This document shows, one piece after another, positions 8,305-46,286 of a DNA stretch of 64,000 nt (positions are counted from its first letter, which is position 1; each line of letters begins with the position of its first letter). The stretch covers positions 930,001-994,000 of the forward strand of contig CP060755.1 in the NCBI GenBank assembly GCA_023205875.1, written 5' to 3'. The translations under genes and the position numbers were made by a program. Origin of the DNA: Chloropicon primus. Taxonomy: Eukaryota. The notes below the pieces were generated by a model. It was given only the letters and a program-made list of their open reading frames with translations, searched no databases and had not been told where the DNA came from.

Positions 8305-9831
8305 TTATGAATCTTGTGGTGGCGTTACTTCCCCTGGAAGGGGAAGGACCTTATAGGGGTTGAGGATGCCCTTGGGATCGAGGGTTTTCTTCACCAGCCG
8401 CATGAGGGAGACGGCAGAGTCCCCCTTGGTGTAACCAATGCAGTCTGCCTTCATCTGGCCCAGCCCGTGCTCCGCGCTGACGCTGCCCCCCAACTCGGCC
8501 GTCCTCTCGTACACGAAGGGCTCGATCAGGGAAGTGAGCTCCTCCGAGTACGCGTCCGCCACCACGTTCAGGTGCAAGTTCCCGTCCCCGAGGTGGCCGT
8601 AGCCAACCGTGTAAGCCCGGTCTCCCACCCTGGCCCTCATGTCCTCCACGAGGCCGTACATGGTGGACTGAGGGATGCTCAAGTCGTACTTGTACATGGC
8701 TTTGTGCGTGTTGAGGGCCTCCGGGACGCCCTCCCTGATGCGCCAAAAGGCCTTGAGCTGGGTGCCGTCCTGCGCGACCGCCCCGTCTGAAATCGCGCCG
8801 CTCTCCAGCGCGGCCTCCAGAAAAGCGTGGAGCTTCTCGTTGTCGTGGTCCTCGTTGCTGCCGCTGGTCTCGAGCAAGACATAAAACCGCTCGGGGGAGC
8901 CTGGCAGCGGGCTCTTGACGTCCTCGTAAGTCCCCACGGCCAGGTCCAAGGACTCCTTGTCCAAGAACTCGAACGCGGACAGGATCTCCCCCAGGTCCGC
9001 CTTGGCCTTCCTGAACGTCTCCAGGACCTTGGAGAAAGTCGCGCAGGCCAAGAAGGTGGCGTTCTTCGCCTTTGGCCGCGGGGGGCAGTGGATGGCCGCC
9101 GCCGTGACCAGGCCCAAGGTCCCCTCGGCCCCGATGAAGAGCTGCTTGAGGTCATACCCCGTCGTGTCCTTCCGCAGGGACTGAAGCACGTCCAGGACCT
9201 CGCCGTTCGCCAGCACGACCTCCAGGCCCAGGACGGAGCCGTGCAGCGACCCGTACCTCAGGTAACGGATCCCCCCGGCGTTCGTCGATATGTTCCCGCC
9301 AATGTGACAGCTTCCCTTCGCCCCCAGGTCCAGGGGCATCATGAGGCCCTCCTTGGCGACGCGATCGTCGAGGTGCTGGAGAATGCAGCCCGCCTGGCAG
9401 ACCAGCACCCCGCTCAGAGGGTCGATGGACTTCACCTCGTTCAACCTGGCCATGCTCACTATAATCTCGTCGAAGACCGGAACGCTGCCCCCCACGAGGC
9501 CCGTGTTCCCGCCCTGAGGCACCACCGCCAAGTTCCTCTCGTTGCAGTGTTTTAGGATGCGAGACACCTCCTCCGTGGTCTTCGGCCGCACCGCCAGGGA
9601 CCCCTCCCCCTTGTACTTTCCCATCCAGTCGGTGTTGAAAGCCTCGAGGTCGTCCTGATGGGAAAGGACGTGGTCGCGGCCCACGACGGACTCGAAGAAA
9701 CGGACGTCGTTTTCAGCGACCACCCCGAAACTTCCCCTCTCCACCGACGTCCCGAACAACCGACGAGCAGAGGACGCCTTCGCGTGGCTCCTCCTCCCAC
9801 ACAACAACAACAACAACCGTGATGTATTCAT
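8305..9831 (-). CDS. D2HGDH: D-2-hydroxyglutarate dehydrogenase, mitochondrial (FAD-linked oxidase)
   Basis: PQGGNTGLVGGSVP, DLGAKGSCHIGGN, GYDLKQLFIGAEG, GHLGDGNLH, SAEHGLG and DPKGILNPYK; Arg-rich presequence. Confidence 0.93.
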   Translation of the reverse strand: MNTSRLLLLLCGRRSHAKASSARRLFGTSVERGSFGVVAENDVRFFESVVGRDHVLSHQDDLEAFNTDWMGKYKGEGSLAVRPKTTEEVSRILKHCNERNLAVVPQGGNTGLVGGSVPVFDEIIVSMARLNEVKSIDPLSGVLVCQAGCILQHLDDRVAKEGLMMPLDLGAKGSCHIGGNISTNAGGIRYLRYGSLHGSVLGLEVVLANGEVLDVLQSLRKDTTGYDLKQLFIGAEGTLGLVTAAAIHCPPRPKAKNATFLACATFSKVLETFRKAKADLGEILSAFEFLDKESLDLAVGTYEDVKSPLPGSPERFYVLLETSGSNEDHDNEKLHAFLEAALESGAISDGAVAQDGTQLKAFWRIREGVPEALNTHKAMYKYDLSIPQSTMYGLVEDMRARVGDRAYTVGYGHLGDGNLHLNVVADAYSEELTSLIEPFVYERTAELGGSVSAEHGLGQMKADCIGYTKGDSAVSLMRLVKKTLDPKGILNPYKVLPLPGEVTPPQDS

Positions 9832-29033: not shown

Positions 29034-29537
29034 TCAATCCAGCACGGGCGGCGCGTGGTCCACCGCCGGACCGCCGTAGATCGCGTCCTTCATGATGAGA
29101 ATGTCGCTGAGCAGCTTCTCCTCCACCAGGGGGCCAAAGTCGATGCGCTCGACAGATTTTACTTCGAGGCGATCCATGATGCCCTGAGCCTTCATCCTCA
29201 GCTTCCCCACCCTCTCCTTGGCCAGTTTTAGCTCGGCCGACTTCCAGAGGCCCAGGCGACCCTCCACCTCTACCTGGCCCGCGGGCACCAACTTGCGGTG
29301 GTTGTCAGCAACGCCTCGAGGCGGAGCCCCCTCCGTCGCGGCGACCGCATCGAAGCAGGACGCGATCACCACCAGGCTGAGCGCGATTGCAACGAACGAG
29401 TGAGACAACCCCCTCCGGCTCAGGCTCGAGTGGAGGTCGTACGCCTGCTTCGCCTTGAGCATGCACCTCGTGCTCCTCGCGATCTCGGCGCGGGCCCTCC
29501 TGGTGTTCGTGAGTCTGAGCATCGTCGTCATCATCAT
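29034..29537 (-). CDS. Small hypothetical secreted or membrane protein with RKL motif (alternative start 29462)
   Basis: Hydrophobic stretch FVAIALSLVVIASCFDAVAA followed by NHRKLV; GC3-rich codons; no recognised domain. Confidence 0.55.
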   Translation of the reverse strand: MMMTTMLRLTNTRRARAEIARSTRCMLKAKQAYDLHSSLSRRGLSHSFVAIALSLVVIASCFDAVAATEGAPPRGVADNHRKLVPAGQVEVEGRLGLWKSAELKLAKERVGKLRMKAQGIMDRLEVKSVERIDFGPLVEEKLLSDILIMKDAIYGGPAVDHAPPVLD

Positions 29538-29955: not shown

Positions 29956-31215
29956 TTAGGTCGAGATTGGGCGAGGCACGTTCTCCTCGAACTGGCCCCT
30001 GTAGTTTCCAGGGGGGTCGTACTGGCAGATGTACAGGGGGCTCGGCACGCCCTTGCAGTGGTCCAGAGGCATGATCACGCAGCCGATGTTCTTGGTGTCC
30101 TTCCACACGACTTGAGTGAAGTGGCCCGTGCTCATTCCGAACCCGGGGTTGTTGTAGTCGTACAAGGGCTCCTCCTTGTCGTACCAGCCTTGCATGGCGG
30201 CCTCCTCGCTGCGGTGACCCCAAGCGAGGTTCTCGCCGTAGCCGTTCCTCTGCTCGAAGGTGCTGTGCCTGACGTTGCAGTCGGACGCGATGACCTCCGC
30301 CCACTTCCTGGCGGACTCCTCGACGGCGCTGGACCAGCCCACGCTTCCCGTTCCGTGCTTGGCCCTGGCGGCGTTGTGGAGCCCGACAAACTTCTTGGCG
30401 CCCGTGGCGTCGCCGATCAGGCACTGGGTTCCGTTCTCGGAGAGGATGAGCCCCTCCAAGCAGGTCGTGCACGTGGCTGCCTCCTGGACGGCGCAGCCCT
30501 CGATCGCGATGCTGCACAAGGCGCCCCCGTTGGTCGGAATGTACCCCTCCTGGCAGCTGGTGCAGTTGGCACCTTGCTGGACCTGGCAGAACTCGATGGC
30601 GGCCTGAGCGAGCACGCACGCCGAGCCGTCCTGGGTGACGTCGTACCCCTCCTCGCAAGTGACGCAAGCCTCTCCCTCCTGGACCTCGCAGAACAAGATG
30701 GCAGGGAAAGTTGCAGGCAGGCACGCCGAGCCGTCCTCGGTGACCTCGTACCCCTCCTTGCAAGCGGTGCAAGCATCCCCCTCCTGGGTCTCGCAGAAGA
30801 TGATGGGCACCTCAACCACGGGAGGCTCGGCGGGCTCCTCTGGCTCGGGGGTCTCCACATCAGGCTCCTCGGTCACTGGGACCTCGGTCACTGGCACCCC
30901 GGTCACTGGGCTCGGCAAGGTGACTGGCGAGGGCTCCTCGCCCTGCGCCTTGTCATAAGTCTCAGAGGTCTCGGCGCAATCACCGTTCTGGCAGATGGTC
31001 GTCTTGACGGTGCAGAGGCCGTTACGACAGGAAGTGCTCTGCGTGTAGGACTGCGAGCCTCCCCCGGTCGAGGACGAGCTCGAGCTCGAGCTCGCGCTCG
31101 AAATGGCCCGAACCCTCTGGGCATCCACGCAGCACAGCCCAACCAAGCACGTCGTCAGGAGGAGGAAGGCGAGGGCCGTGGTGGCAGTCGCTGTCTTCTT
31201 CTTCGTCATCATCAT
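29956..31215 (-). CDS. Secreted CAP/SCP/PR-1 protein 1: signal peptide, 4-Cys module, Pro/Glu linker, 4 Cys-rich repeats, CAP domain
   Basis: HNAARAKHG, YGENLAW, GHFTQVVWK and CQYDPPGN CAP signatures. Confidence 0.92.
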   Translation of the reverse strand: MMMTKKKTATATTALAFLLLTTCLVGLCCVDAQRVRAISSASSSSSSSSTGGGSQSYTQSTSCRNGLCTVKTTICQNGDCAETSETYDKAQGEEPSPVTLPSPVTGVPVTEVPVTEEPDVETPEPEEPAEPPVVEVPIIFCETQEGDACTACKEGYEVTEDGSACLPATFPAILFCEVQEGEACVTCEEGYDVTQDGSACVLAQAAIEFCQVQQGANCTSCQEGYIPTNGGALCSIAIEGCAVQEAATCTTCLEGLILSENGTQCLIGDATGAKKFVGLHNAARAKHGTGSVGWSSAVEESARKWAEVIASDCNVRHSTFEQRNGYGENLAWGHRSEEAAMQGWYDKEEPLYDYNNPGFGMSTGHFTQVVWKDTKNIGCVIMPLDHCKGVPSPLYICQYDPPGNYRGQFEENVPRPIST

Positions 31216-31784
31216 TGTTATCGCCGCCGCTGGATTGCTGTCGGTGGTGGTGGTGTGTTCGACCGAGGTGTGGACGATTCTGTCTGGCCCGCGAGGCGAC
31301 GGACCTCTTAAATAGTCCCCTCGCGGGCCTGTGACGTCAAACGTCCACCATCATGAGGCCGACCTCCTCCGAGTACTCATTGAGTCCCAGCCCATCAAAA
31401 AAATTCTGCAGAAGGCCCTGGTGGATGGGAGTGGGAGGGTGAAGGGTAACGGTCGTCGTTAACGAGGGGCAGGCCAGGCAAGCGGAGGGAGGGGCTCATT
31501 GAGTCCTGGACCATCAGAAATTCTGCAATTTGTGTGTGGGGGGGTTGGTTTTGGAACGAAAGTTGGATCCTTTTTGTCCCGCACGCGCCAAGGCCAAGGG
31601 AGATCACCTTTGCTGGTGGTTCTAACATATACATATACATGTAATGCAGACCAAAGAGAAGCCAATGGAGTAAGATATGCAAAAAGTTTTGACTACACGG
31701 ATTGTTGCTTTGCTGGTGTTATTGGTTGGATAATGATTCGGTTGGTGGTCGTCCTGGCTGCAGCACGCCAAGATTCTTTGGCGC

Positions 31785-33251
31785 TCAGCTCGAGATTGGG
31801 CGAGGCACGTTCTCGGGGAACTGCCCAGCGTAGTTTCCAGGGGGGTCGTACTGGCAGATGTACAGGGGGCTCGGCACGCCCCTGCAGTGGTCCAGAGGCA
31901 TGATCACGCAGCCGATGTTCTTGGTTTTCTTCCACACGACTTGAGTGAAGTGGCCCGTGCTCATTCCGAACCCGGGGTTGTTGTAGTCGTACAAGGGCTC
32001 CTCCTTGTCGTACCAGCCTTGCATGGCGGCCTCCTCGCTGCGGTGACCCCAAGCGAGGTTCTCGCCGTAGCCGTTCCTCTGCTCGAAGGTGCTGTGCCTG
32101 ACGTTGCAGTCGGACGCGATGACCTCCGCCCACTTCCTGGCGGACTCCTCGACGGCGCTGGACCAGCCCACGCTTCCCGTTCCGTGCTTGGCCCTGGCGG
32201 CGTTGTGGAGCCCGACAAACTTCTTGGCGCCCGTGGCGTCGCCGATCAGGCACTGGGTTCCGTCCTCGGAGAGGATGAGCCCCTCCAAGCAGGTCGTGCA
32301 CGTGGCTGCCTCCTGGACGGCGCAGCCCTCGATCGCGATGCTGCACAAGGCGCCCCCGTTGGTCGGGATGTACCCCTCCTCGCAAGTGACGCAAGCCTCT
32401 CCCTCCTGGACCTGGCAGAACTCGATGGCGGCCTGAGCAGGCTCGCAGGCGGTGCCGTCCTCGTTGGGGACGAAGCCCTCGTCGCAGGCCAGGGGCGGCT
32501 CCTCGGCCACGGGCTCGCAGGCGGTGCCGTCCTCGCTGGGGGCGAATCCCTCGTCGCAGGCCAGGGGCGGCTCCTCGGTCACGGGCGGCTCCTCGGTCAC
32601 GGGCGGCTCCTCGGTGGCATCGTCGCCGCCGTCCACCGGATCCTCGGTGACTGGCTGATCGCCCTGCCCCCTGGCTGCCCTGCGGGCCTCCAGTTCCGCT
32701 CTCCTCGCCGCAATCTTGGCCTTAATCTCCGCTCTCCTGGCCTCGATGTTCGAGCTGTTGAGCGAGAAGCGGTTGGCGCGGCTGGCAACCTTGGCCTCGG
32801 CGTCGTCGAGGGCCTTCTCCACGAGCTGGATCTCCTGCACGGTGACCTCGTCGTTGTAGACCTTCTCCAGGAACTGGTCCACGACGCTCGTGCGAGACGA
32901 CCTGATGACCCTGCTCTTCCTCAGGTTCCTCCCAAAGTACTTCTTGGTCTCCGCGTCGAGGGCCCGGAGCTCCGCCTTCAGGGCGGAGGGCGGGGCCACG
33001 TAGCTGGCGACCGCCTCGTCGGCCTTGACCTCATCCTTGTCGTAGGTCTCGGTCTCCTCGGTGCACACGCCGTCCCTGCAGGTCTTCGTAACGACCGTGC
33101 AGGCGTTACCGTTGCAAGACGAGGACTGCGAGGTCGAGAAGCCCGTAACGGACTTGGACGTGATCTGGATGTCCTCCAGGCCGTTGCCGATCGCCGCGCC
33201 AGACAAGGCGAGCATCACCGCCATCGAGATCGCTGCAGTTGTTCTCTTCAT
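31785..33251 (-). CDS. Secreted CAP/SCP/PR-1 protein 2: signal peptide, 4-Cys module, helical Arg/Ala segment, Cys repeats, CAP domain
   Basis: Same CAP signatures; the 3' ~600 nt are nearly identical to CAP1; first ATG at 33251. Confidence 0.92.
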   Translation of the reverse strand: MKRTTAAISMAVMLALSGAAIGNGLEDIQITSKSVTGFSTSQSSSCNGNACTVVTKTCRDGVCTEETETYDKDEVKADEAVASYVAPPSALKAELRALDAETKKYFGRNLRKSRVIRSSRTSVVDQFLEKVYNDEVTVQEIQLVEKALDDAEAKVASRANRFSLNSSNIEARRAEIKAKIAARRAELEARRAARGQGDQPVTEDPVDGGDDATEEPPVTEEPPVTEEPPLACDEGFAPSEDGTACEPVAEEPPLACDEGFVPNEDGTACEPAQAAIEFCQVQEGEACVTCEEGYIPTNGGALCSIAIEGCAVQEAATCTTCLEGLILSEDGTQCLIGDATGAKKFVGLHNAARAKHGTGSVGWSSAVEESARKWAEVIASDCNVRHSTFEQRNGYGENLAWGHRSEEAAMQGWYDKEEPLYDYNNPGFGMSTGHFTQVVWKKTKNIGCVIMPLDHCRGVPSPLYICQYDPPGNYAGQFPENVPRPISS

Positions 33252-34007
33252 CTTCACTTCACTTCACTTCAAAGGTGGTGGTGTTCTTGTTCTTCTCGTT
33301 GCTTGCGAGGAGGAAGAGGACTGGTGTTGTTGTCGTGGTCTTCGTCGAATGCTGTTGCTTTCGTCCTTGACCGCCGAGGTGCAGCGAATTGTGTCGGACC
33401 GAAGCCAAGCGCTCGGCACACCCCACCTTTGACCAAGACACGATCGATCGATCGGAGTTTGATGGAATTATCATGAATTTTGATCGTCGGCGAGAGACGA
33501 AGCGGAAATGTTAATCTCGAATGACTCTACTGGTAAAGGCTTGTGAATCGCTCGGAAATGTTGACGTCCCGGAAAATAGTTCGGTCTCTCGCCAAATCCA
33601 GTCCTCATCGATTGCTCGATTGGGGCAGATTCATTCCGTCATTGAGAAGCGCGGTTGTAACCGACATAGACTGGACATGGAGCACCACAACTTTGGCTTC
33701 TTCCCCTTGAGCGACGCGAGCAAGAGGAAGAGGAAGAACGCGATCGAGGCAATGAAAGGCAGCAGCGCGAGGTCCCTTTTGTTCTCCCCTGCAGCCTTGT
33801 CCCTCGCCACGGCGGCTTGGAACCAAATCCGGCACCACGGCGTGGCGATGAGCCTGCCTCAGCTCTGCGGCGACGGGATGGAGTGGTGGGCTTGACCTCT
33901 GAGAGAGAAGGGGGGGCTCTCTGTGCCATCCCCTTGCGGCTGGTGGCATCGTTTGCGGCTCTAAAACAACTTTTTATATAAAAAAACGAAATCGATCTCT
34001 TTTTGAT

Positions 34008-34032
34008 ATCGATCGATCGATCGATCGATCGA
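34008..34032. repeat. (GATC)n palindromic tetranucleotide repeat in the CAP3 3' UTR
   Basis: atcgatcgatcgatcgatcgatcga; a shorter copy lies at about 33441-33453. Confidence 0.85.
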
Positions 34033-34052
34033 AAGCCTTGCCTCTCCTTGAT

Positions 34053-35720
34053 CTAGTTTGCGACGGGAGGAGGCACGTTCTCCTCGAACTGGCCCCTGTA
34101 GTTTCCAGGGGGGTCGTACTGGCAGACGTACAGGGGGCTCGGCACGCCCTTGCACCCGTCCAGAGGCACGGTGACGCAGCCGATCTTCTTGGTGTCCTTC
34201 CACACGACTTGAGTGAAGTGGCCCGTGCTCCCCGCGAACCCGGGGTTGTCGTAGTCGTACTTCCTCTCCTCGTCGTCGTACCAGGCTTTCATGGCGGCCT
34301 CCTCGCTGCGGTGACCCCAAGCGAGGTTCTCACCGTAGCCGTTCCTCTGCTTGAAGGAGCTGTGCCTGACGTTGCAGTCGGACGCGATGACCTCCGCCCA
34401 CTTCCTGGCGGACTCCTCGACGTCGCTGGACCAGCCCACGCTTCCCGTTCCGTGAATCCTCCTGGCGGCATTGTGGAGCCCCAGGAACTTCTTGGCGCCC
34501 GAAACTTGCGAGAGGATGCACTGGGATCCGTCTTCCACGAGAAGGTACCCCTCAAAGCACGCCGTGCACAAGCCGTTCTCCTGGACCTCGCAGAACTCGA
34601 TTCCACAAGCCGTGCCCTCGTTGGTCGGGACGTACCCGTCCAAGCAGGTCGTGCACGTGGCTGCCTCCTGGACCTCGCAGAACTCGATCGCGATGCTGCA
34701 CAAGGCGCCTTCGTTGGTCGGGATGTACCCGTCCAAGCAGGTCGTGCATGTGACTGCCTCCTGGACCTTGCAGAACTCGATCGCGATGCTGCACAAGGCG
34801 CCCCCATTGGTCGGGACGTACCCCTCCTGGCAGCTGGTGCACGTGGCTGCCTCCTGGACCTCGCAAAACTCGATGGCGGCCTGAGCGAGCACGCACGCCG
34901 AGCCATCCTCGGCGACCTCGTACCCCTGCTGGCAGCTGGTGCAAGCGTCTCCCTCCTGGGTCTCGCAGAACTCGATGGCAGCAGGGGCTTTGGCGAGCAC
35001 GCACGCCGAGCCTTCCTCGGCGACCTCGTACCCCTGCTGGCAGCTGGTGCAAGCGTCTCCCTCCTGGGTCTCGCAGAATGTGATCTGCTCGAGAGGCTCG
35101 GGAGACTCACCGCCCACCACCGGCTCCCCCCCCACCGAATCCTCGCCGCGCTCCACCTCAACGACGTCGTCGTCGGAGTCGCCGGTATCGGCCGCCCCGT
35201 CGAGCCTCCTGCTCAATTGCTCTTGTCTCGCGGTGCGACGTGCGAGGATGCTCTCCACGATCTCCCTCGCCCTGCTCGACCTCGATGAACCCCTCGCGAC
35301 ACGCTCCTCCTCCTTCTCCTCTTCACGGGACGATGACGGCGACGACGAAGGGGGGGTCGTGTCCTCCCCCGTCTCTCCGACCGTTACCTGCGAGGGCTCC
35401 GCCTCCGCGGCTTCCTCTTGGGGTGCGGCTTCCTCTTGGGGTGCGCCCTTGGTGTAGGTCTCGACGGTCTCGGTGCACCCCTCGCCGCTCCGGCACACAG
35501 TCGTGGTCACGGTGCAGAGGCCGCTCCTGCATTTCGTCTTCGTCGTCTTGGTGTGAGCCCTCGTTCCTCCCCTCCCGCTCCTGCTGCTCGCGGAGGAGCT
35601 GGAAGAGGCTGCACTGTGAGAATCAGCTTCGACGACGGCGAGGAAGCACGACCCGAGCACGAGGAGCGCAATGGCGATGGCCGTTGCAACGACGATCGAT
35701 CTTCTTCTTGTCGTCGTCAT
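34053..35720 (-). CDS. Secreted CAP/SCP/PR-1 protein 3: signal peptide, 4-Cys module, 6 Cys-rich repeats, CAP domain
   Basis: CAP signatures; ATG 35720 precedes the hydrophobic signal IVVATAIAIALLVLGSCFLAVVEA. Confidence 0.92.
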   Translation of the reverse strand: MTTTRRRSIVVATAIAIALLVLGSCFLAVVEADSHSAASSSSSASSRSGRGGTRAHTKTTKTKCRSGLCTVTTTVCRSGEGCTETVETYTKGAPQEEAAPQEEAAEAEPSQVTVGETGEDTTPPSSSPSSSREEEKEEERVARGSSRSSRAREIVESILARRTARQEQLSRRLDGAADTGDSDDDVVEVERGEDSVGGEPVVGGESPEPLEQITFCETQEGDACTSCQQGYEVAEEGSACVLAKAPAAIEFCETQEGDACTSCQQGYEVAEDGSACVLAQAAIEFCEVQEAATCTSCQEGYVPTNGGALCSIAIEFCKVQEAVTCTTCLDGYIPTNEGALCSIAIEFCEVQEAATCTTCLDGYVPTNEGTACGIEFCEVQENGLCTACFEGYLLVEDGSQCILSQVSGAKKFLGLHNAARRIHGTGSVGWSSDVEESARKWAEVIASDCNVRHSSFKQRNGYGENLAWGHRSEEAAMKAWYDDEERKYDYDNPGFAGSTGHFTQVVWKDTKKIGCVTVPLDGCKGVPSPLYVCQYDPPGNYRGQFEENVPPPVAN

Positions 35721-37326: not shown

Positions 37327-37749
37327 GTGCGAGCGGTCTCTCCCTCTCCCTCCCTCCCTCTCCTCTCTCTCTGGCTGGGGTGCGCGACCGTTACGAAGCA
37401 CCCCTTCATTTCTGAAACGGCCCCAGCTTGCTGCTGTTGCTGCTTGGAGAGCAAGCAAGCTTTGCTTCCTCCGCTTTGGTTTCGCACCGTGGAAGTGCAA
37501 GGCCGACCCGGGATCGTCACACACACACACAGACAGAGAGAGAGAGAGGCAAGGCAAGGCAAGGCGGGGAACGAAAGAGTCTCTGGTGGTCCGGGGACGC
37601 GCTCGCGGCGGCGGTGTGTGTGCTTGGGGAAGGATAGATGGATTACAAAACGAACAAAACAAAAAAGAAAGAAAGGAATCGAGAAGCCGCTCCTTGCCCT
37701 CCTGGAATCGCTTGCGTTCTGGAGGTCTGCTCGGCTCGGACTGCTCCTC

Positions 37750-38067
37750 TCACAGCCCGATGGACGTGCCGATGTCGCCGAAAGAGGCTTGCAGGAAGTC
37801 GAAGCTGTCGTCGAAGAAGTCGCCGACGTAGTCGCCCAGGAAGCCGTAACTAACGCGGTCGATGAACTGGCGGGTGACAGCCGCCGTGAGTCGGAACGGA
37901 TTGATCGTCTCGTAGGCCGGAAGGCGCAACCAGGGCTGCTGCAGCTGCAGAAGCTTGCGGTTCGAGAGGCTCTGCTCCTCCGCGGCCGAGGCGCAGGACA
38001 GGAGGCCGAGGAGGAGGACGGCACCCGCCAGCAGCAACGTCTGCGTCTTTCTTCGGGGGGCACTCAT
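37750..38067 (-). CDS. Small secreted prepropeptide-like protein P1 (105 aa, RKLLQ motif)
   Basis: Signal peptide LLLAGAVLLLGLLSCASA, then NRKLLQ; GC3-rich codons; TGTAA about 100 nt after the stop. Confidence 0.75.
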   Translation of the reverse strand: MSAPRRKTQTLLLAGAVLLLGLLSCASAAEEQSLSNRKLLQLQQPWLRLPAYETINPFRLTAAVTRQFIDRVSYGFLGDYVGDFFDDSFDFLQASFGDIGTSIGL

Positions 38068-38496
38068 CGCGTCGTTCTTCTTCTTCTTCTTCTCTCCGGT
38101 GGTCGCAAGGCCGTCGTCGTCGTCGTCGTCGTTCGTCGTCGTCGTCGTTGTTGTTCTTCTTCTTGAAGTGCTTGCGCGGGGGAACGTGTAACGGTCGCCG
38201 TGGCGTTGGCAAATTCTGAAAGAAAGGACGAGAGGGTACAAACATTGTGGTTTTCTTTCGACCCGTTCATGTTGTTTGTGATTCTCCTGTGGTCGAACTC
38301 CATCCATCCCCCATTCCCACCCCTGCGACCTCAATTCTCGGTTCCCAATTCCTCGACGGAGGAGCCGAAAATGCAGCAGAGGGGAAGGGATCCCGAGGAA
38401 ACGATCGAGCAAAGGGAGAGAAAGGGGGCGACTCGATCAAAACGGCAATGGTGGTGGCTTGGTTTATTCTTTTTTTTTTTCTTTTAGAAAATCGTT

Positions 38497-39436
38497 TCAC
38501 CTGGGCCTCGGGACGTTCTCGGCGAACGCGCCCATGACGTTCCCCGCCGGGGAGTATTGGCAAGTCCAAAGGTTTTGGCCGGGGCAGTTACCCCTCGCGC
38601 AGCCGACCTCCTGGGTGCCCTTCCACACGACTTGAGTGAAGTGGCCCGTGCCCATTCCGAACCCGGGGCTGTTGTAGTTGTACAGGGCGATCTCGTCGTA
38701 CCAGTCCTTGATGGCCTTCTCGATGTCTTGGTGGCCCCAGGCGAGGTTCTCGCCGTAGCCGGCGCCGAGGGAGTGGGCGAAGACGCAACGGTCCGCGTGG
38801 CTCTGGGCCGATCTCGCGACCTCGTCGCTCCAGGCGAGCAAAGGGACGCCGTGCTTCCTCCTGTACTCGTTGTGCTTGTCCAGGGCGCTCCGCTGCAGCG
38901 GCGACAAGAGGGGGTCGGTCTCGGGCTGGGTCGCGGCGGGCTGGGTCGCGGCGGGCTGGGTCGTGGTGGGCAGGGCCTCGGCGGCGGCGACGGGTCTCGG
39001 CCAAGTCTTCGTCTCCGTCCGGCACTGGCACCTCTTTTTCCACCACTCGACGCGGCACTTTGACTCCTGGCCGATGAGCTCGCCATGGTGGCGCCTGCAC
39101 CTCGCCATGCAGGGCGCTGGAGCGGGAGAGAGGAGCGAGCGCGGTGTGAGAAACCAAGTGCGAGGGATCCGCTCCATCGATCGTCGTCGAGAGGAGGGAG
39201 AGGGGGAGAGAGAGGGAGTGAGGGAGAGGGGGCTCACCTGCGCACGTCGTGTACTTTCCCCGACAATGCTTTGTCCAGCACGTTCTCTCGTAGACCGTCT
39301 CCCAACCCTTGGAGACCTTCCACCAACCGCCGCTCGTCCAATGGAAGTCACTCGCGGCCTGGCAGGCCAGCGCGGTGGCCACGACGGCCAGCGCAAGGAG
39401 TCGACAACACCTCAACACCCACGATGACGATCCCAT
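38497..39436 (-). CDS. Secreted CAP/SCP/PR-1 protein 4 with N-terminal Trp/Cys-rich domain; exons 39436-39238 and 39116-38497
   Basis: A phase-1 CAG|GTGAG...CCAG intron (121 nt) joins the signal-peptide exon to the CAP exon in frame (YGENLAW, GHFTQVVWK, CQYSPAGN). Confidence 0.88.
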
Positions 39437-39751
39437 GGCGCGCGTGCCCTCGTTCTCGTCTCGTAGCGCGGGACGCCACAAACCCAAACCCCGAAGAACA
39501 ATCTGCCCAAGGTTTTCCCTGATTTGCCCAAGAAGAATGGGCGTTACGGGTTTGCCATGCGAATCAGTATTCTTCCCGCACACATTGTCTCGGGGCTGAG
39601 TGCGTCGAACGACAGCGACAGCGACGACGACGACGACGCGCGCCGAAGGACGGACGTTGCGCTCTCTCTCTATCTTTCTCTCTCTCTCTCTCAATTCTCG
39701 CTTCTCTCTGGTTTAGAGACGCGAAGGACGACGACGACGACGACCGTGGGG

Positions 39752-41235
39752 ATGAGAACGAGGAGGAGGACGGAGATGATGCCAAGGGGAGGCGTGGCTC
39801 TTCTCGCAGCGATCGCGGTCGGCTTGATCCTGCTCCAATGCGTCGCGGCTTTGGACACGGTGCGCAACCAGCGCTTGGAAGCCTCGCTGAGGCAGAGCCA
39901 GGTTCGCGAGCGCATCGCCCGCAGGCGTGCCGAGGCGCAGGCCAGGAGGGAGAGGAGGAGGGAGGAGGTCGAGGCGAGGAAGCGGGAGGTGAGGAGGAAG
40001 CGGGAGGCGAGGAGGCACACTTGGCCCGATTGGGGGGAGTTCGAGGAGCCGCCCAGCGCTGGTGTACCGCAGAGTGAGCACATGGGCCTCGACTTGCACA
40101 ACGAGCTCAGGTCCCTTCACGGGGCCCCGGCCCTCGAGTGGAGCGACGCGGTGGCGGCATCCGCCCAGGAGTGGGCGGACAAGCTCGCCGCGGAAGGGTG
40201 CGATCTCGTGCACGACATGGACAGCGGGTACGGGGAGAACCTCGCCAAGGGGCACGAGAGCCTCGATCTTGCCATCCAGGACTGGTACGACGAGGTGCGC
40301 TGGTACAACCACAGGCGGGCCAGGTTCAGCGAGCGCACCGGTCACTACACCCAGCTCGTGTGGATGAATTCCGAGAACGTTGGGTGCGCCCAGGCCACGT
40401 GCCACGACGACAGGTTCGGAAGGAAGATCTTCGTGTGCCGTTACGACCCACCAGGCAACTTCCACGGCCACTTTGCCGAGAATGTTCTTCCACCCGCTGA
40501 TAGGTGGCGCCCAAGGCCACCGGCACCAAGGCCACCACCACCAGGGCCTCCACCACCAGGGCCTTCGCCACCACCGCCGCCACCAGGGCCTTCACCACCG
40601 CCACCACCTCCAGGGCCACCACCACCAGGGCCTCCACCACCGCCCCCACCTCCCCCCCCACCACCACCAGGGCCTCCACCACCGCCACCACCTCCCCGCC
40701 ACCGCCACCAGGGCCTCCACCACCGCCACCACCTCCACCGCCACCGCCACCGCCACCGCCACCACCTCCACCGCCACCCCCAGGGCCACCCAGCAGTAAC
40801 TTGGGTCTGCAGTTGCACAACACCCTCAGGAGCAACCATCCCAACACCCCACCCATGGTTTGGGACAACGCTCTCGCGGCACGTGCACAGGAGTGGGCAA
40901 ACCACCTCGCCAATAACAGGAACTGCAACTTGGAGCACAGCACCTACCAGTGGAGAAATAGCGCCGGAGAGAACCTTGCCTCGGGGTTCGGCAGCATGGA
41001 CCAAGCCGTCCAGGGTTGGTACGACGAAGTGTGCTTGTACAATCACGTGTCCGGTGGCTTCGGTACGAGCACGGGCCACTACACCCAAATGGTCTGGGCG
41101 GACACCACGAGGCTTGGCTGCGCCCAAGTGGTGAGGAGCGGATGCAGGATGTACGTCTGCCACTACGGTCCGGCTGGGAACTTTGCGGGCCAGTTCCAGC
41201 AGAACGTCCACGAGCCTTACAGCAAAAATTGTTGA
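39752..41235 (+). CDS. Secreted double-CAP protein 5 with polyproline (PPPG) linker; frame break near 40694-40697
   Basis: CAP domain 1 (GENLA, GHYTQLVW, CRYDPPGN) is in one frame and CAP domain 2 (GENLA, GHYTQMVW, CHYGPAGN) is in the -1 frame. The polyproline reading switches frame at cctccccgcc. Confidence 0.8.
40510..40792 (+). repeat. Degenerate CCA/CCG/CCT triplet repeat encoding PPPG/polyproline
   Basis: Directly visible repeated ccaccaccagggcct and ccaccg units. Confidence 0.9.
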
Positions 41236-41524
41236 TTTCCAATCAAGATCTTTCGACCGAAGGGAGATCCTATCCAATAAACCAAGAAACCTTTCCGACC
41301 CTGTTAGGAAGAACAAACTTCTACGACGCTATCTTTCTGAATGACTCTCTCTTTCAGGGGAAAGCATATGAAACCTGTGCGGAACCACGGGATCATATAT
41401 CAAGAACTTGAAGGCTCTCGCCTCGCGAGGCCAGTGGTCTCCAGCCCGGATGCCCGGGGGCTGGCTGAGCCAACTTGGCTCTCAGTGAGCAGCCTGGGTC
41501 GACTCAGAGACCCCCCTGGGCACC

Positions 41525-41590
41525 GGAACTTTGCGGACCCAGTCAAAGAGGAAGGTCCGCGAGCCTTACAGCAAAAATTGTTTGAATTAC
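41525..41590 (+). pseudogene. Degenerate duplicate of the last ~65 nt of the CAP5 gene
   Basis: ggaactttgcgg...gagccttacagcaaaaattgtt matches 41177-41240 with substitutions and indels. Confidence 0.75.
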
Positions 41591-41656
41591 AAGAAGAAGA
41601 CGTCTCGAAGAAGAGACGTTTGTCCGAACAGCAGCTCGCTGAGAGTCCGCCCCGTT

Positions 41657-41887
41657 TCAGCCGTACACGTTGTCGCCGAGGCCTCCGACAGGCGGCATGC
41701 CCAGCGCTGCTGCTGCGAACGTCGCGTTCGCCGTCGCGTTCGCCGTCGCGTTCACCGGCAGGCCGTTCTCGTCGTAAATGACACCGAGAGCTGGAAGGAG
41801 CGTTTCCGCTAGCCCTGGGGCGCAGCCGCACGCGGCCAAAAGCGCCAGCACGAGGAGGAGCACTCGCCTCGACCAGTCTCCCCCCAT
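41657..41887 (-). CDS. Small secreted peptide P4 (76 aa; NATANATANAT; C-terminal Gly)
   Basis: Signal peptide RRVLLLVLALLAACGCAPGLA; TGTAA about 65 nt after the stop. Confidence 0.65.
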   Translation of the reverse strand: MGGDWSRRVLLLVLALLAACGCAPGLAETLLPALGVIYDENGLPVNATANATANATFAAAALGMPPVGGLGDNVYG

Positions 41888-41905
41888 TTTTTTTTTGGAC
41901 ACGCG

Positions 41906-41907
<2 letters not shown>

Positions 41908-41941
<34 letters not shown>
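41908..41941. repeat. (TG/CA)n microsatellite in the 5' region of P4
   Basis: Visible TG run. Confidence 0.9.
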
Positions 41942-41942
<1 letters not shown>

Positions 41943-42488
41943 TTCCCTCTCCGAGAGTCAGCCCAAAAGAAGGAGAGAACAAGGACGCTTCTCTTTTCTG
42001 TTTTCCACGCGGCAAGACCCCCTTAACGCCCGCGCGAGCGTTACCGCTTCCGGTCTTCTCCTTCGTCGTCGCCACCAGCCCCCTCACTGACCGAGAGGGA
42101 AAAAAAAATTGCCCGAACCTCGAAGCAAGGTTGGGGGGGGTAATCTCGATCGCCTTGGGTGATGGATTGGGGAGCGCGTAACAAACAGGGTTTTCTTCGG
42201 GGGGGTGGGGTCGAGGGCACACTACGCACTTCGCGCACACTTCACTCCCCCACCAAACCCCTTTCTCCCCTTTGTCGTTGCGCGAAGGAGATGATGGAGG
42301 GTGGTTTCTTGTCCGTGAGAGAGGGAGGGACGACGACGGAGGCGAGTTCCGGCTGGCAAAGGAAGAAACAATTGCGTCGTCGGATAAAGTGTACATGAAA
42401 AGCAAGGTAATGCAAGAACAAAAAAAAGAAGTGGTTTCGGCTCCGCGGCCCCGAGGGCTCGGCGGGCCCCCCTCGCTCCGCTCGCTCC

Positions 42489-42851
42489 TCACTTCCCCAC
42501 CTGGGTGAAGACGGGGTCCACGAAGGTGTCGAGCACGGACTGCCCGCCGGCGGTGAAGATCCCGTCCCAGAAGTTGCCCAACACGGTCCCCAGGATGGGG
42601 ATGCCCGCCCCAGGGCTGCCGAAGAGCCTGCCCTCGTTCTCCATGAAGGACTCGGAGGCGTCCTCCAGCTCGTCACTCAAGTCGCCGAAGGCGTTCGGGC
42701 TCACGAGGCCCTGGAGGTACGGCGGGAGCGTAATCGGGGCAACCCCCGGCCAGGTCAGCTGCTGGAGCTTCCTGCCCTGCGCCGAGGCCAGGCCAGCCAC
42801 CAGCGCCACGAGCACCAGCAGCATCCTTGTCAACATCTTGTTCTGCGTCAT
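42489..42851 (-). CDS. Small secreted prepropeptide-like protein P2 (120 aa, RKLQQ motif, ends -VGK)
   Basis: Signal peptide MLLVLVALVAGLASA, then QGRKLQQ; strongly GC3-biased codons. Confidence 0.78.
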   Translation of the reverse strand: MTQNKMLTRMLLVLVALVAGLASAQGRKLQQLTWPGVAPITLPPYLQGLVSPNAFGDLSDELEDASESFMENEGRLFGSPGAGIPILGTVLGNFWDGIFTAGGQSVLDTFVDPVFTQVGK

Positions 42852-43320
42852 CCTCCTAATCGTAATCGTCGTCCTCCTCGTCGCTGGCGGTGGCGGTATG
42901 ATGGAAGTGGTCGCGAGTGAATGTGAGCTCTGCGGTCGTCCTCGTCGTCCTCGTCCAGCAACTGTTGCGCGCGCTCCTGAGAATTCTGACACAGCGGTTG
43001 TTGTTGTCCCAAGGAAGAGAAGAGAGGAGGAGGAGGAAGGGCTTCGGCCTCAAACCTTGGTCCTCACTCCTTCGCTCTCGTCCCCCTCCTCAACACGGCC
43101 CTCTCTACTCTCCCCACCCAGCAACCTTGACGCCCCACCGCACAGAGTACAAAATCGCACGGTGGAAACCTTAGCCGAATCTGCTTGATCTCGCGTCTCT
43201 CCCTCAGGCGTCCTGGGGGTCAGAAGGTCAGAAGGAGGTTGAAGCGTTACGTGCGTTACCCGAAAGAGAACGCAAGAGAAGCGAGCGACGAGCTTGAGAA
43301 CTACTACTGCTGCTGCTGTG

Positions 43321-43683
43321 ATGACGATGATGAGGGCGAGAGGGTTCTCCTTGGTGGTCCTGGCCCTGGTGGCGGGAGTCTTCGCGTCGGTGGCGAGCGC
43401 GTCGACGCGAAATTTGCAGCAGAGCTTCCTGAGGAACGGGATTCAGGCCCCGAGGACGCTGTACATCCCGGGCCTCGGCCTGTCCATCGCGATCGGGAAC
43501 GTTCCCGGCTTCTACACGTCCGAGATCTTCTCCAGCCTGCTGGAGGACGGGCCCCTCTCAGGGCTCGGGGACCTGGACGACTACGGGTTCGACAGCCTCA
43601 TCGAGCAGGCGGTCACCAACTCGATCGCCCTGGCCTCGGACGCGGCCACGGGGTCCTCCACCATCGTTGCGGGCAAGAAGTGA
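43321..43683 (+). CDS. Small secreted prepropeptide-like protein P3 (120 aa, RNLQQ motif, ends -AGKK)
   Basis: Signal peptide FSLVVLALVAGVFASVASA, then STRNLQQ; T-rich 3' UTR with TGTAA near 43752. Confidence 0.78.
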   Translation: MTMMRARGFSLVVLALVAGVFASVASASTRNLQQSFLRNGIQAPRTLYIPGLGLSIAIGNVPGFYTSEIFSSLLEDGPLSGLGDLDDYGFDSLIEQAVTNSIALASDAATGSSTIVAGKK

Positions 43684-43778
43684 GCCCCCCGGTTGTCTTT
43701 TTTCTTTCTCGCCTGTTTTCGCTTCGTATTCGATGACTTGTTTTTTGCTGTTGTAATGTTTACATCTTTACGCGCCAG

Positions 43779-45063: not shown

Positions 45064-45350
45064 GCCTCATTGATGCGAACACCCGAAACGGAGAGAGATC
45101 ATGAACGGAAGGAGACCGCACGGGAGAGAGGATCACGAGGAGCGAAGGACATGAAGCAGGGCGGCATGGAATGCCTAATGCTCCAATCACCTCCCTGACA
45201 CTGACTGACAACGACAAGCAAGAATTGATCGCTGAAAATTTCGGCCACTGTCTATTCTATGGGGCGCGGGCGTTGGGGTGGGGTCGACTGACTAACGTCC
45301 GTTCTGTGTGTGTCAAACCAACCACGACGACACACGACAACCGCGCGGCG

Positions 45351-46286
45351 ATGAAGGGTGGTGGGGACGAGGCCGCGGGGGCCGCGGGGGGCTCCTCCAA
45401 GGACGAGGCCGCGTGGAAGGAGAGGGCGGTGCGCAAGTGGGAGAAGGAGGTCGAGGCCTGTGCGTACCTACTGTGCGGCGGGGTGCCTCCTGTGCTCGAG
45501 TGGGGCGAGCTCGAGCAGGCGATGGAGGAGGTTCAAAAGTCGTCGATGAGGTCGCCGACCAGCGTGCTGGACGAGGAGGGGCTCCCCCTGTACTCGAGGT
45601 GCGCGGCGGGGATCGTCAAGCTGCTGCGGGGGAGGGGCCTGCTGGAGGAGGGGGAGGTGCTGGAGAAGGTGGTGGGGCCCCATGAGAGCTCGAGCGAGCC
45701 CAAGTTCGCGCCGAGGGCCTCCGTGAGGGTTCGGTCGGACTACGGCCGCCGCTGCCAGTGGCCCTACCCGTACCACACCCTGGCCGGCTTCCTCTTCGGG
45801 GCGGAGGGGAAGGTCCAGAGCTTCAAGGGGCTCGAGGCCAACACCGCCGCCATGGCGTTCGGCGCCCGGGGAGCGACCCAGCCCGTCTACGTCGTCTCCT
45901 TCCCACTCGACAGTTTGTTGACCGCGCCGGAGACCGTGGCGGCCGTCAGGGGGATGACCGTGGATGTCGAGGTCGTGGAAGCCTGGCTCGAGGCAGTGGA
46001 TCCGGTTCAGAGAATTTTCGAGGCCTGGCCAAAGGACGCCAAGAGGGAGAGGATGAGGCAGTTTCGGAGCGAGTTCGAGCACGCTTACCTGTATGGCCAC
46101 CCCCCAGCCCCGGGTCAGGACCTCTCCTCCAACGCCGTCGCCTTGCTCGTCGAGAAAAACCTCGTGGCGGCCAAGGACATCAGCGAAACGGTGTCGGAGA
46201 GGGAGAAAGTCCTGCTGGATTACCAGGCCTCCTTCTCCAAAAAGGCCTTCTTCGTCAAAAAGTCGCCTCCTTCTTCCTCTTCGTAG
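45351..46286 (+). CDS. Divergent nitrile/thiocyanate hydratase beta-subunit-like protein with C-terminal stub resembling the alpha N-terminus
   Basis: WEKEVEA..GELEQAME..LYSRCAAGIVKLL..RGLL, PKFAPRASVRVR, GFLFGAEGKV, QPVYVVSF and TVDVEVVEAWLE follow the NHase beta pattern by eye. No CxxCSC motif is present. Confidence 0.65.
   Translation: MKGGGDEAAGAAGGSSKDEAAWKERAVRKWEKEVEACAYLLCGGVPPVLEWGELEQAMEEVQKSSMRSPTSVLDEEGLPLYSRCAAGIVKLLRGRGLLEEGEVLEKVVGPHESSSEPKFAPRASVRVRSDYGRRCQWPYPYHTLAGFLFGAEGKVQSFKGLEANTAAMAFGARGATQPVYVVSFPLDSLLTAPETVAAVRGMTVDVEVVEAWLEAVDPVQRIFEAWPKDAKRERMRQFRSEFEHAYLYGHPPAPGQDLSSNAVALLVEKNLVAAKDISETVSEREKVLLDYQASFSKKAFFVKKSPPSSSS

Follow-up and report, generated by a model that had tools for sequence, protein, structure and literature searches.

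Clustered genes for small, predicted secreted and C-terminally amidated proteins, possibly signals, in the picoalga Chloropicon primus

We describe four small neighbouring genes of Chloropicon primus, here called P1 to P4, whose products are predicted secreted miniproteins and possibly signals. They lie in a 64,000-nucleotide stretch of contig CP060755.1 (positions 930,001 to 994,000; hereafter the window, to which all coordinates refer). In P2, P3 and P4 a fixed Gly near the stop codon is combined with an interchangeable basic tail, the carboxypeptidase/PAM signature, and these three products are likely to be chemically capped at the C-terminus. In animals, this conserved end-signal serves in the final maturation of peptide hormones. 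Our preferred reading, to which we assign a probability of roughly 45%, is that the cluster encodes secreted, RxLxQ-trimmed, amidated ligands of 65-90 residues.

P1 (37750..38067, minus strand) encodes 105 amino acids with a predicted signal peptide, the motif RKLLQ, a near-invariant block, two predicted helices and the C-terminal end IGL. P4 (41657..41887, minus strand) encodes 76 amino acids with a predicted signal peptide, three NAT sequons and the end VYG, and lacks RxLxQ. P2 (42489..42851, minus strand) and P3 (43321..43683, plus strand) each encode 120 amino acids beginning with a predicted signal peptide; P2 has an acidic mature part and ends VGK, and P3, conserved over its whole mature chain, ends AGKK (43672-43683, including the stop codon). 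These last two are arranged head to head around a 469-nt spacer (42852..43320) that is likely a shared promoter region. P1, P2 and P3 were present as the initial annotation had described them in coordinates, lengths and ends, as were the end of neighbouring P4, the motifs RKLLQ, RKLQQ and RNLQQ and the Cys-free, acidic mature parts of P1, P2 and P3 (net charge -4, -9 and -5, respectively). The N-termini of all four products and their orthologs are hydrophobic, as judged by a hydropathy heuristic only. GC3 is 0.87 in P1, 0.94 in P2, 0.93 in P3 and 0.78 in P4, and TGTAA, which we take to be a likely poly(A) signal, follows the stop codons of P1 at 103 nt (37643..37647, minus strand), P4 at 66 nt (41587..41591, minus strand) and P3 at 69 nt (43752..43756, plus strand). 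The exact P1 protein is present in NCBI/UniRef/eukprot, and transcript-collection labels attach to P2, P3 and orthologs of all four genes. Since the exact P2 and P3 sequences bear the mmetsp source label, splicing at their stop codons is unlikely. Two CAP/PR-1 genes (Pfam PF00188; 38497-39436, minus strand, spliced, and 39776-41235, plus strand) lie between P1 and P4 and are kept in a second Chloropicon species (L002), where the gene order of the cluster is identical and P2 and P3 are likewise head to head, with a spacer of 363 nt. Those relatives for which a name is given are all Chloropicon.

Conservation of the terminal Gly among orthologs, on which the proposal of amidation turned, holds for P2, P3 and P4. 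The P2 ortholog, found via synteny and 36-40% identical, ends VGRK or IGRK as compared to VGK in the window, with a GRK-type end in 14 of 15 ortholog-cluster members among the matches listed. For P3, 40 sequences formed 11 groups at 80% identity, or ten once P0055 was merged with its matching group; the orthologs end AGKK, AGK or xG, and G, GK or GKK closes eight of the ten groups. The exceptions are P0046, ending GWHYP, and P0056, which stops short of the Gly, while four further matches that stop early look like fragments. Among nine P3 representatives that are 30-71% identical, the terminal Gly is one of six columns invariant in 9/9. P4 ends YG in the window and YGRR in its L002 positional ortholog (YGRR in 15/15 cluster members listed); here the sequence likeness is weak (62/2000 shuffles) and orthology rests mainly on position. 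Between the fixed Gly and the stop, the P2-P4 orthologs thus have nothing, K, KK, RK or RR, and in L002 four of the four cluster products have G(K/R)n-type ends. Every residue that the orthologs newly place behind the Gly (R, RR or K) is basic, for which the chance is 0.125 to the power 3-4, or 0.002-0.0002; one WHYP tail stands against this. Ends of the form G(K/R)0-3 occur in 3/4 of the genes considered here and in 0/22 other window ORFs, which were picked by hand as genes (Fisher p=0.0015, the four having been chosen after their ends were seen). We regard amidation of the P2, P3 and P4 products as quite likely. For P1 an amidation-type end is found in one of three lineages, that of C. roscoffensis, where the protein ends LGK; P1 of the window ends IGL and that of another lineage LGFQDNVPN, and amidation of P1 in this species is not supported.

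The RxLxQ site lies at residue 37 of P1 (RKLLQ; 37945..37959, minus strand), where it is the predicted pro-peptide site and invariant in 5/5 aligned sequences, at residue 27 of P2 (RKLQQ; 42759-42773, minus strand) and at residue 30 of P3 (RNLQQ; 43408-43422, plus strand). As the initial annotation would predict, it is kept in orthologs of all three genes, with the x positions variable. Eight of nine P3 groups with an intact N-terminus read RNLQQ, RRLQQ, RSLAQ, RSLQQ or RKLQQ, and the ninth, P0053, reads RNLQF with F in place of the final Gln; the Gln at motif position 5 is also found in all P1 and P2 lineages. In the 22 comparison ORFs, RxLxQ occurs twice in 11,651 residues (expected 0.005 per 25-residue stretch), and its presence in P1, P2 and P3 exceeds chance. 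RKL after a signal peptide is also seen in two unrelated neighbouring secreted ORFs, in keeping with the caveat raised at the outset that motifs of this type are common in algal secreted proteins. The consensus of site-1 protease is given as RxLx/RxxL (PMC13082318), and we think it quite likely that P2 and P3 are cleaved at RxLxQ. A cut after Leu, PEXEL-like or diatom RXL-like, fits the sequence equally well as a cut after RxLx. Pyroglutamate would call for Gln at the new N-terminus together with a glutaminyl cyclase or spontaneous cyclisation. It depends on the choice of site, as after a cut at Leu neither P1 nor the RSLAQ group would start with Gln, and we give a putative pyroglutamate on the products an even chance.

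The description of P1, P2 and P3 as one family is not supported, as their mature parts are without convincing homology. The alignment scores of the mature parts were reached by 344 (P1/P2), 1179 (P1/P3) and 213 (P2/P3) of 5000 shuffles, profile-profile probabilities were 4.2%, 0.6% and 0.2% in the same order, sequence searches from one of the three never returned another, and at the DNA level nothing indicative of duplication was found beyond matches of signal-peptide length. The sole hint of kinship is one 20-column helix over which the P1 and P2 profiles beat 100/100 column shuffles. LP[AP]Y, proposed as a motif shared by P1 and P2, is missing in the P2 ortholog. The second such motif, LGxxxG[DN]F[FW]DxxF, has disappeared from one P1 lineage, and the ortholog of P2 retains only part of it. 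P1-P4 are a functional cluster rather than a demonstrated gene family, and P1 is a separate gene having the RxLxQ site in common. Its conserved block, N36-R59 (37891..37962, minus strand), comprises the RKLL site and the next 19 residues, closed by a single conserved Arg. The 24 residues are 24/24 identical to the L002 ortholog despite nine synonymous changes, and 23/24 identical to the L001 ortholog with ten; past the block, only 14/46 and 20/46 residues are identical. This candidate short peptide, the invariant N-terminal 19-mer, is the likely working part of P1, for which amidation would be dispensable.

Published C. primus genome tables annotate PAM at two loci and site-1 protease (MBTPS1), two of the three enzymes for which a search was proposed initially. 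A carboxypeptidase D-like gene is annotated as a secondary KO only; glutaminyl cyclase, the third of those proposed, was not found among the rows listed of the published table. These annotations stem from a published genome of the genus rather than from the genome to which the window belongs. By analogy with known enzymology, the signal peptide would be removed, the pro-piece of P2 and P3 would be cut by site-1 protease between RxLx and Q in the Golgi, and C-terminal Lys/Arg would be trimmed by the carboxypeptidase D-like enzyme. PAM would then turn the Gly into an amide, giving a P2 Val-amide of ~88, a P3 Ala-amide of ~84 and a P4 Tyr-amide of ~50 residues. The weakest part of the scheme is that the capped products would then serve as extracellular ligands resistant to proteases.

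A ligand role falls a little short of even odds in our estimation. The mature parts are 30-71% identical between relatives, beside a kinesin stretch that is 92% identical, and this fits recognition molecules. Mature P1-P3 have neither an internal dibasic site nor a repeat, as would be found in a classical neuropeptide-type precursor. Against a ligand speak the end-to-end conservation of P3 and the length and acidity of the products, which set them apart from most short peptide hormones.

The close rival of the ligand role is a surface-coat role. Here the same processing would yield abundant amidated miniproteins that assemble into the wall or surface coat of the cell, with capping stripping terminal charges such that the ends can pack. 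The invariant Pro, Phe, Gly and Asn along the whole P3 chain suit such a structural job, as do the three N-glycosylation sequons of P4, and 14 P3-like proteins are labelled "merc", presumably for a catalogue of ocean metatranscriptomes, a hint of high expression. AlphaFold models mature P3 with a short strand at the C-terminus, although at low confidence (pLDDT 47, pTM 0.25), as it does two helices in mature P1 (pLDDT 55, pTM 0.26). RXL pro-pieces are described as typical of diatom wall proteins (PMC5525289). The chains have, however, no repeats, Cys or hydroxyproline-type tracts, and the amidated algal products known so far in the literature consulted, all from Chlamydomonas, are signals (PMC6919629, PMC9351486). 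On balance we find the structural alternative rather unlikely.

Alternatively, the Gly ends might be structural or incidental, and the products ordinary secreted orphans that carry a generic RxL pro-piece but are not amidated. Such ends are reported for 73 of 771 Chlamydomonas secreted proteins (~9.5%; PMC6919629), other Gly columns of P3 are just as invariant among the nine representatives, and other tails are tolerated in P1 and P0046. This would leave as coincidence a stop placed right after Gly, or after Gly plus Lys/Arg only, in three genes with a tail that differs by species, next to CAP genes whose own tails vary freely between species, in a genus with annotated PAM, an enzyme requiring only a terminal Gly (PMC6313938); we judge it improbable. 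Slightly less probable again is that these are amidated defence peptides, membrane- or surface-active against bacteria, viruses or grazers and clustered with CAP/PR-1 genes. In its favour, five CAP genes lie in the window, two of them inside the cluster, the sequences diverge rapidly with within-species variants, and P1 is modelled as two helices. Against it, the products are negatively charged, with a pI of about 4.1 in 8/9 tested, and no family match was found; as for their best hydrophobic moments, most do not stand out from those of shuffled sequences (equalled by 10-139 of 300 shuffles). The low pI and these moments give little support to the initial suggestion of membrane activity, and a cationic antimicrobial peptide, which would have a net positive charge and a strongly amphipathic helix, is rejected.

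Homology searches placed none of the products in a known family. Pfam (E 0.1) gave no family for P1-P4, and a word search with P2 returned its own shorter form only, among 63 candidates. The ESM Atlas gave no feature match for P2 or mature P3, with structure neighbours of P2 all below threshold. With P3, a profile search of PDB sequences gave a single match at E 1.2, Foldseek gave nothing below E 7 from a model too weak to be informative, and five candidate stretches of viral contigs contained no relative. The literature searched, with most subscription papers outside it, yielded nothing on amidated peptides in Chloropicon, nothing relevant on small secreted amidated peptides or pheromones of green algae or prasinophytes, and no description of the P1-P4 genes; the word "secreted" is absent from the main text of PMC12301720. 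Capped secreted miniproteins of the kind predicted here appear not to have been described for these algae in the sources found.

PAM is retained in cilia-less algae such as Ostreococcus, Coccomyxa and Chlorella, where its role is treated as unexplained in a review (PMC6529398). P1-P4 offer named, small, conserved candidate PAM substrates with exact predicted masses in a widespread oceanic picoalga, and the swapping of G, GK, GKK, GRK and GRR at orthologous ends could also serve, by simple comparison of species, to single out real PAM substrates among the proteins of other protists. It is a doubtful but bolder speculation that Chloropicon clusters unrelated hormone-like precursors that would unite a plant-type site-1 protease cut with animal-type amidation and pyroglutamate, serving as species-specific water-borne signals (of density, mating or stress) among picoplankton.

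Several known systems resemble parts of this scheme. The mammalian "capped peptides" (bioRxiv 10.1101/2023.06.02.543503) share the predicted combination of a pyroglutamate at one end and an amide at the other, but are described as short fragments shown by mass spectrometry, whereas the algal chains are 65-88 residues long and their two caps are predictions. The Plasmodium PEXEL, RxLxE/Q/D, is a secretory maturation site whose pentamer all three of our motifs match exactly; an aspartic protease cleaves it behind the Leu, so that the fourth residue becomes the new N-terminus (PMC10900883), and no host export is implied for the alga. Diatom RXL-domain proteins (silaffins, silicanin-1) have, next to the signal peptide, a short pro-piece that terminates in RXL and is removed by a protease, but are wall/biosilica proteins of another lineage, with an unknown protease and no amidation signal reported in the portion of the source available (PMC5525289). 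The plant site-1 protease (SBT6.1) precursors RALF23, GOLVEN/CLEL and SCOOP are small and secreted, with a signal peptide and then RxLx/RxxL upstream of the mature part (PMC13082318). Land plants are described as lacking PAM (PMC6529398), and therefore these peptides would not be amidated; moreover, RALFs are Cys-rich and the plant precursors have no homology to the cluster genes. In Chlamydomonas, the amidated precursors proGATI (Cre03.g204500) and Cre12.g487700 are proline-rich proteins of 77-91 kDa that are cleaved at paired basic sites and shed from gamete cilia, as compared to 76-120 amino acids, an RxLxQ site, an alga without observed flagella and transcripts in culture collections for P1-P4, and sequence searches found no relationship between the two sets. 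The likeness lies in their origin from a green alga, their signal peptides, the reported trimming and amidation of a C-terminal Gly(K/R)n without an internal cut, and the adjacency of related precursors in the genome (PMC6919629, PMC9351486).

By their sequence, the four small neighbouring genes are real and three of them carry a conserved amidation-type signature, and they are not one family. On re-reading the window, the ORFs that the initial annotation had placed for P1 (37750-38067, minus strand), P2 (42489-42851, minus) and P3 (43321-43683, plus) all matched; P4 (41657-41887, minus) is their neighbour. All four show a gene-like GC3 of 0.78-0.94 and, by a hydropathy heuristic, a hydrophobic N-terminal stretch. 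Right behind it stand RKLLQ (P1), RKLQQ (P2) and RNLQQ (P3), and the mature parts of these three are, as had been described, Cys-free and acidic (net charge -4, -9 and -5). None of the four matched a family in a Pfam search. Their exact proteins are all present in a public sequence collection, those of P2 and P3 under an mmetsp label, which we take to mean transcriptome-derived, so unspliced transcripts ending at the P2 and P3 stops likely exist; mmetsp-labelled members also occur among the orthologs of each gene. The motif TGTAA, presumably the poly(A) signal of green algae, follows the P1, P3 and P4 stops at 103, 69 and 66 nt and was not found within 250 nt behind that of P2; it is present within that distance in 5 of 9 genes tested (expected 0.086 per 250 nt).

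The locus lies in eukaryotic surroundings, with Pfam matches to CAP/PR-1 genes, a peroxidase, a 2OG-Fe(II) oxygenase and GILT; relatives with a species name come from Chloropicon roscoffensis and C. mariensis. When metagenomes were scanned with the alignment of P1, 2 loci were confirmed among 345 candidate stretches, and one of these, L002, keeps the window order: oxygenase, P3, P2 (head to head), P4, CAP, CAP, P1, peroxidase, GILT, two more genes and kinesin, with three additional CAP genes of the window missing. Those three CAP/PR-1 genes (29956-35720, minus) stand in tandem, are secreted and carry Cys-rich repeats; they have no equivalent between the L002 peroxidase and GILT, which argues for a lineage-specific expansion or a move. 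The CAP gene at 39776-41235 (plus) has two CAP domains linked by a poly-proline tract, within which lies a frame shift at about 40690-40800 that may come from a misassembly, an intron or a true break; its L002 counterpart has one CAP domain. A 44-nt copy (84%) of this gene's 3' end (41190-41233) lies in the P4 3' region (41539-41582), and the ORF at 45171-46286 (plus) weakly matches a nitrile hydratase beta C-terminal domain (E 2.5e-05, below the Pfam cut-off). The P3, P4 and P2 orthologs at L002 304-2213 have mmetsp transcripts with consecutive numbers (8520-8522), perhaps by co-assembly from overlapping or co-expressed transcripts.

The proposal that a terminal Gly or GK is conserved held for P2, P3 and P4 and failed for P1, so that the amidation-type signature appears real in three of the four genes. 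P2 ends in VGK, and its ortholog (36-40% identical) in VGRK or IGRK in 14 of the 15 members listed out of 42, the remaining one being a short form of 63 aa. P4 ends in YG, and the L002 gene of the same position and orientation in YGRR in all 15 members listed out of 25; overall likeness between the two is weak (score reached by 62 of 2000 shuffles). P3 ends in AGKK, and sequence searches and cluster look-ups gave 40 P3-like sequences, which fall into 11 groups at 80% identity. With P0055, a P3-like protein, counted with the group sharing its C-terminal half, the chain closes with G, GK or GKK in 8 of 10 groups; P0046 ends in GWHYP and P0056 before the Gly. In one group, four members end at differing earlier positions and are fragment-like. 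P0053, P0054 and P0056 are shorter relatives that lack at least 11 residues from the start of the mature part, and may be paralogs or proteins of other Chloropicophyceae. In a comparison of 9 P3 representatives (30-71% identical), 6 columns are invariant and include the terminal Gly, which is preceded variably by A, V or I. P1, by comparison, ends in IGL in the window and in LGFQDNVPN and LGK in a second and third lineage.

Because the Gly is kept and the tails vary among the P2-P4 orthologs, the stop codon has moved several times with only Lys/Arg inserted before it, with one exception. Such tails are what carboxypeptidase B-like trimming, followed by the amidating enzyme PAM, predicts (PMC6313938, in part). 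Every tail residue that the first reading could not see (R, RR, K) is basic, which has a probability of 0.002-0.0002 if K+R occur at a frequency of 0.125; WHYP is the counter-case. Ends of this type occur in 49+24 of 771 Chlamydomonas signal-peptide proteins (PMC6919629, in part); against that base rate 3/4 here gives p=0.003 (post hoc) and 4/4 in L002 gives 8e-5, two values that are not independent. Among 22 other window ORFs picked as genes, some maybe spliced, none has a G(K/R)-type end. We put the probability of amidation at about 0.8; that the products are not amidated is quite unlikely.

The RxLxQ motif is likewise kept across relatives, with varying x: in all 15 P2 orthologs listed (RKLQQ), in every P1 lineage (RKLLQ) and in 8 of the 9 P3 groups whose N-terminus is intact (RNLQQ, RRLQQ, RSLAQ, RSLQQ, RKLQQ), the ninth having RNLQF. 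It was not found in P4, and the 22 other window ORFs, with 11,651 residues in all, contain it twice. The caution that similar motifs mark other algal secreted proteins was warranted: RKL also follows the signal-type stretch of ORF 29034-29537 and of an L002 CAP gene, and the site is therefore probably a general maturation signal of this alga. That small ORF (minus strand, GC3 0.85, no Gly end) gave no tblastn match against L002, and the CAP protein (L002 2569-3291, minus) has an acidic Gly/Phe-rich tail like mature P1-P3 in composition. The motif is compatible alike with the S1P/SBT6.1 consensus RxxL/RxLx (PMC13082318), the diatom RXL pro-piece (PMC5525289) and PEXEL, RxLxE/Q/D, cut one residue earlier (PMC10900883), all from partial texts. 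Cleavage there is, in our view, as probable as amidation. Gln becomes the new N-terminus in nearly all members only if the cut is of the S1P type; pyroglutamate thus depends on it and stands at even odds.

The claim that P1-P3 form a family does not stand. Mature-part alignments score at or near shuffle level (reached by 344, 1179 and 213 of 5000 shuffles for P1/P2, P1/P3 and P2/P3), profile-profile probabilities are 4.2% for P1/P2 and 0.6% and 0.2% for the other pairs, and searches with each gene never returned another. Along a single helix of 20 columns, none of 100 column shuffles equalled the P1/P2 profile match, which hints weakly at distant kinship or only at a helix pattern common to both. 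Conservation also differs by gene: whole length in P3, chiefly both ends in P2, the end only in P4. In P1 a 24-residue block is identical at 24/24 and 23/24 positions in two other lineages (9 and 10 synonymous changes) and the part downstream at only 14/46 and 20/46, which suggests a short active peptide with a conserved Arg as its end.

We consider it most probable that each chain would enter the ER and lose its signal peptide, that site-1 protease would cut P1-P3 at RxLx|Q, and that terminal Lys/Arg would be trimmed before PAM amidates P2-P4; blocked at one or both ends, the chains would stay intact in seawater or on the surface of the cell. Word searches of supplement rows from the paper on the C. 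primus genome (PMC6731263, in part; genus-level) gave annotations for some of the expected enzymes: PAM has two annotated loci, MBTPS1 (site-1 protease) is a primary KO and a carboxypeptidase D-like gene only a secondary KO, and no glutaminyl cyclase is among the rows covered, which are those within the first 4 million characters of the table and in files other than 13-15 and 17-20.

The predicted mature chains have 65-88 residues (7-9 kDa), with a pI of about 4.1 in 8 of 9 tested products. The predicted structures are of poor quality and show a hairpin, two helices and a C-terminal strand for P3 (pLDDT 47) and two helices for P1 (pLDDT 55). Structure and sequence searches with P2 or P3 found no relatives; a profile search of 1.84 billion representatives gave 11 matches, none of the named ones beyond Chloropicon and many nameless. 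Since the amidated products known from algae serve as signals, and since these genes change rapidly from one species to another, we tentatively favour an extracellular ligand, at slightly under even odds. A wall or coat role is less likely. Defence is the least likely, and no clear amphipathic excess was seen (best hydrophobic moment reached by 10-139 of 300 shuffles). Vegetative C. primus cells lack flagella yet the genome holds a nearly full flagellar gene set; flagellar and meiosis genes show little expression (PMC6731263, in part), and sex is not observed according to the available part of PMC12301720.

A literature search covering subscription journals little returned no paper on Chloropicon peptides that are amidated, or small and secreted; the background, in partial texts, comprised PMC6529398, PMC6919629, PMC6313938, PMC5525289, PMC13082318, PMC10900883, PMC12301720, PMC6731263, PMC9351486 and 10.1101/2023.06.02.543503. 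The comparison is with the C-terminally amidated precursors of Chlamydomonas (PMC6919629, PMC9351486), which P1-P4 would resemble in working without being members of those families by sequence, and from which P1-P3 differ in the plant-like S1P site ahead of the mature part.
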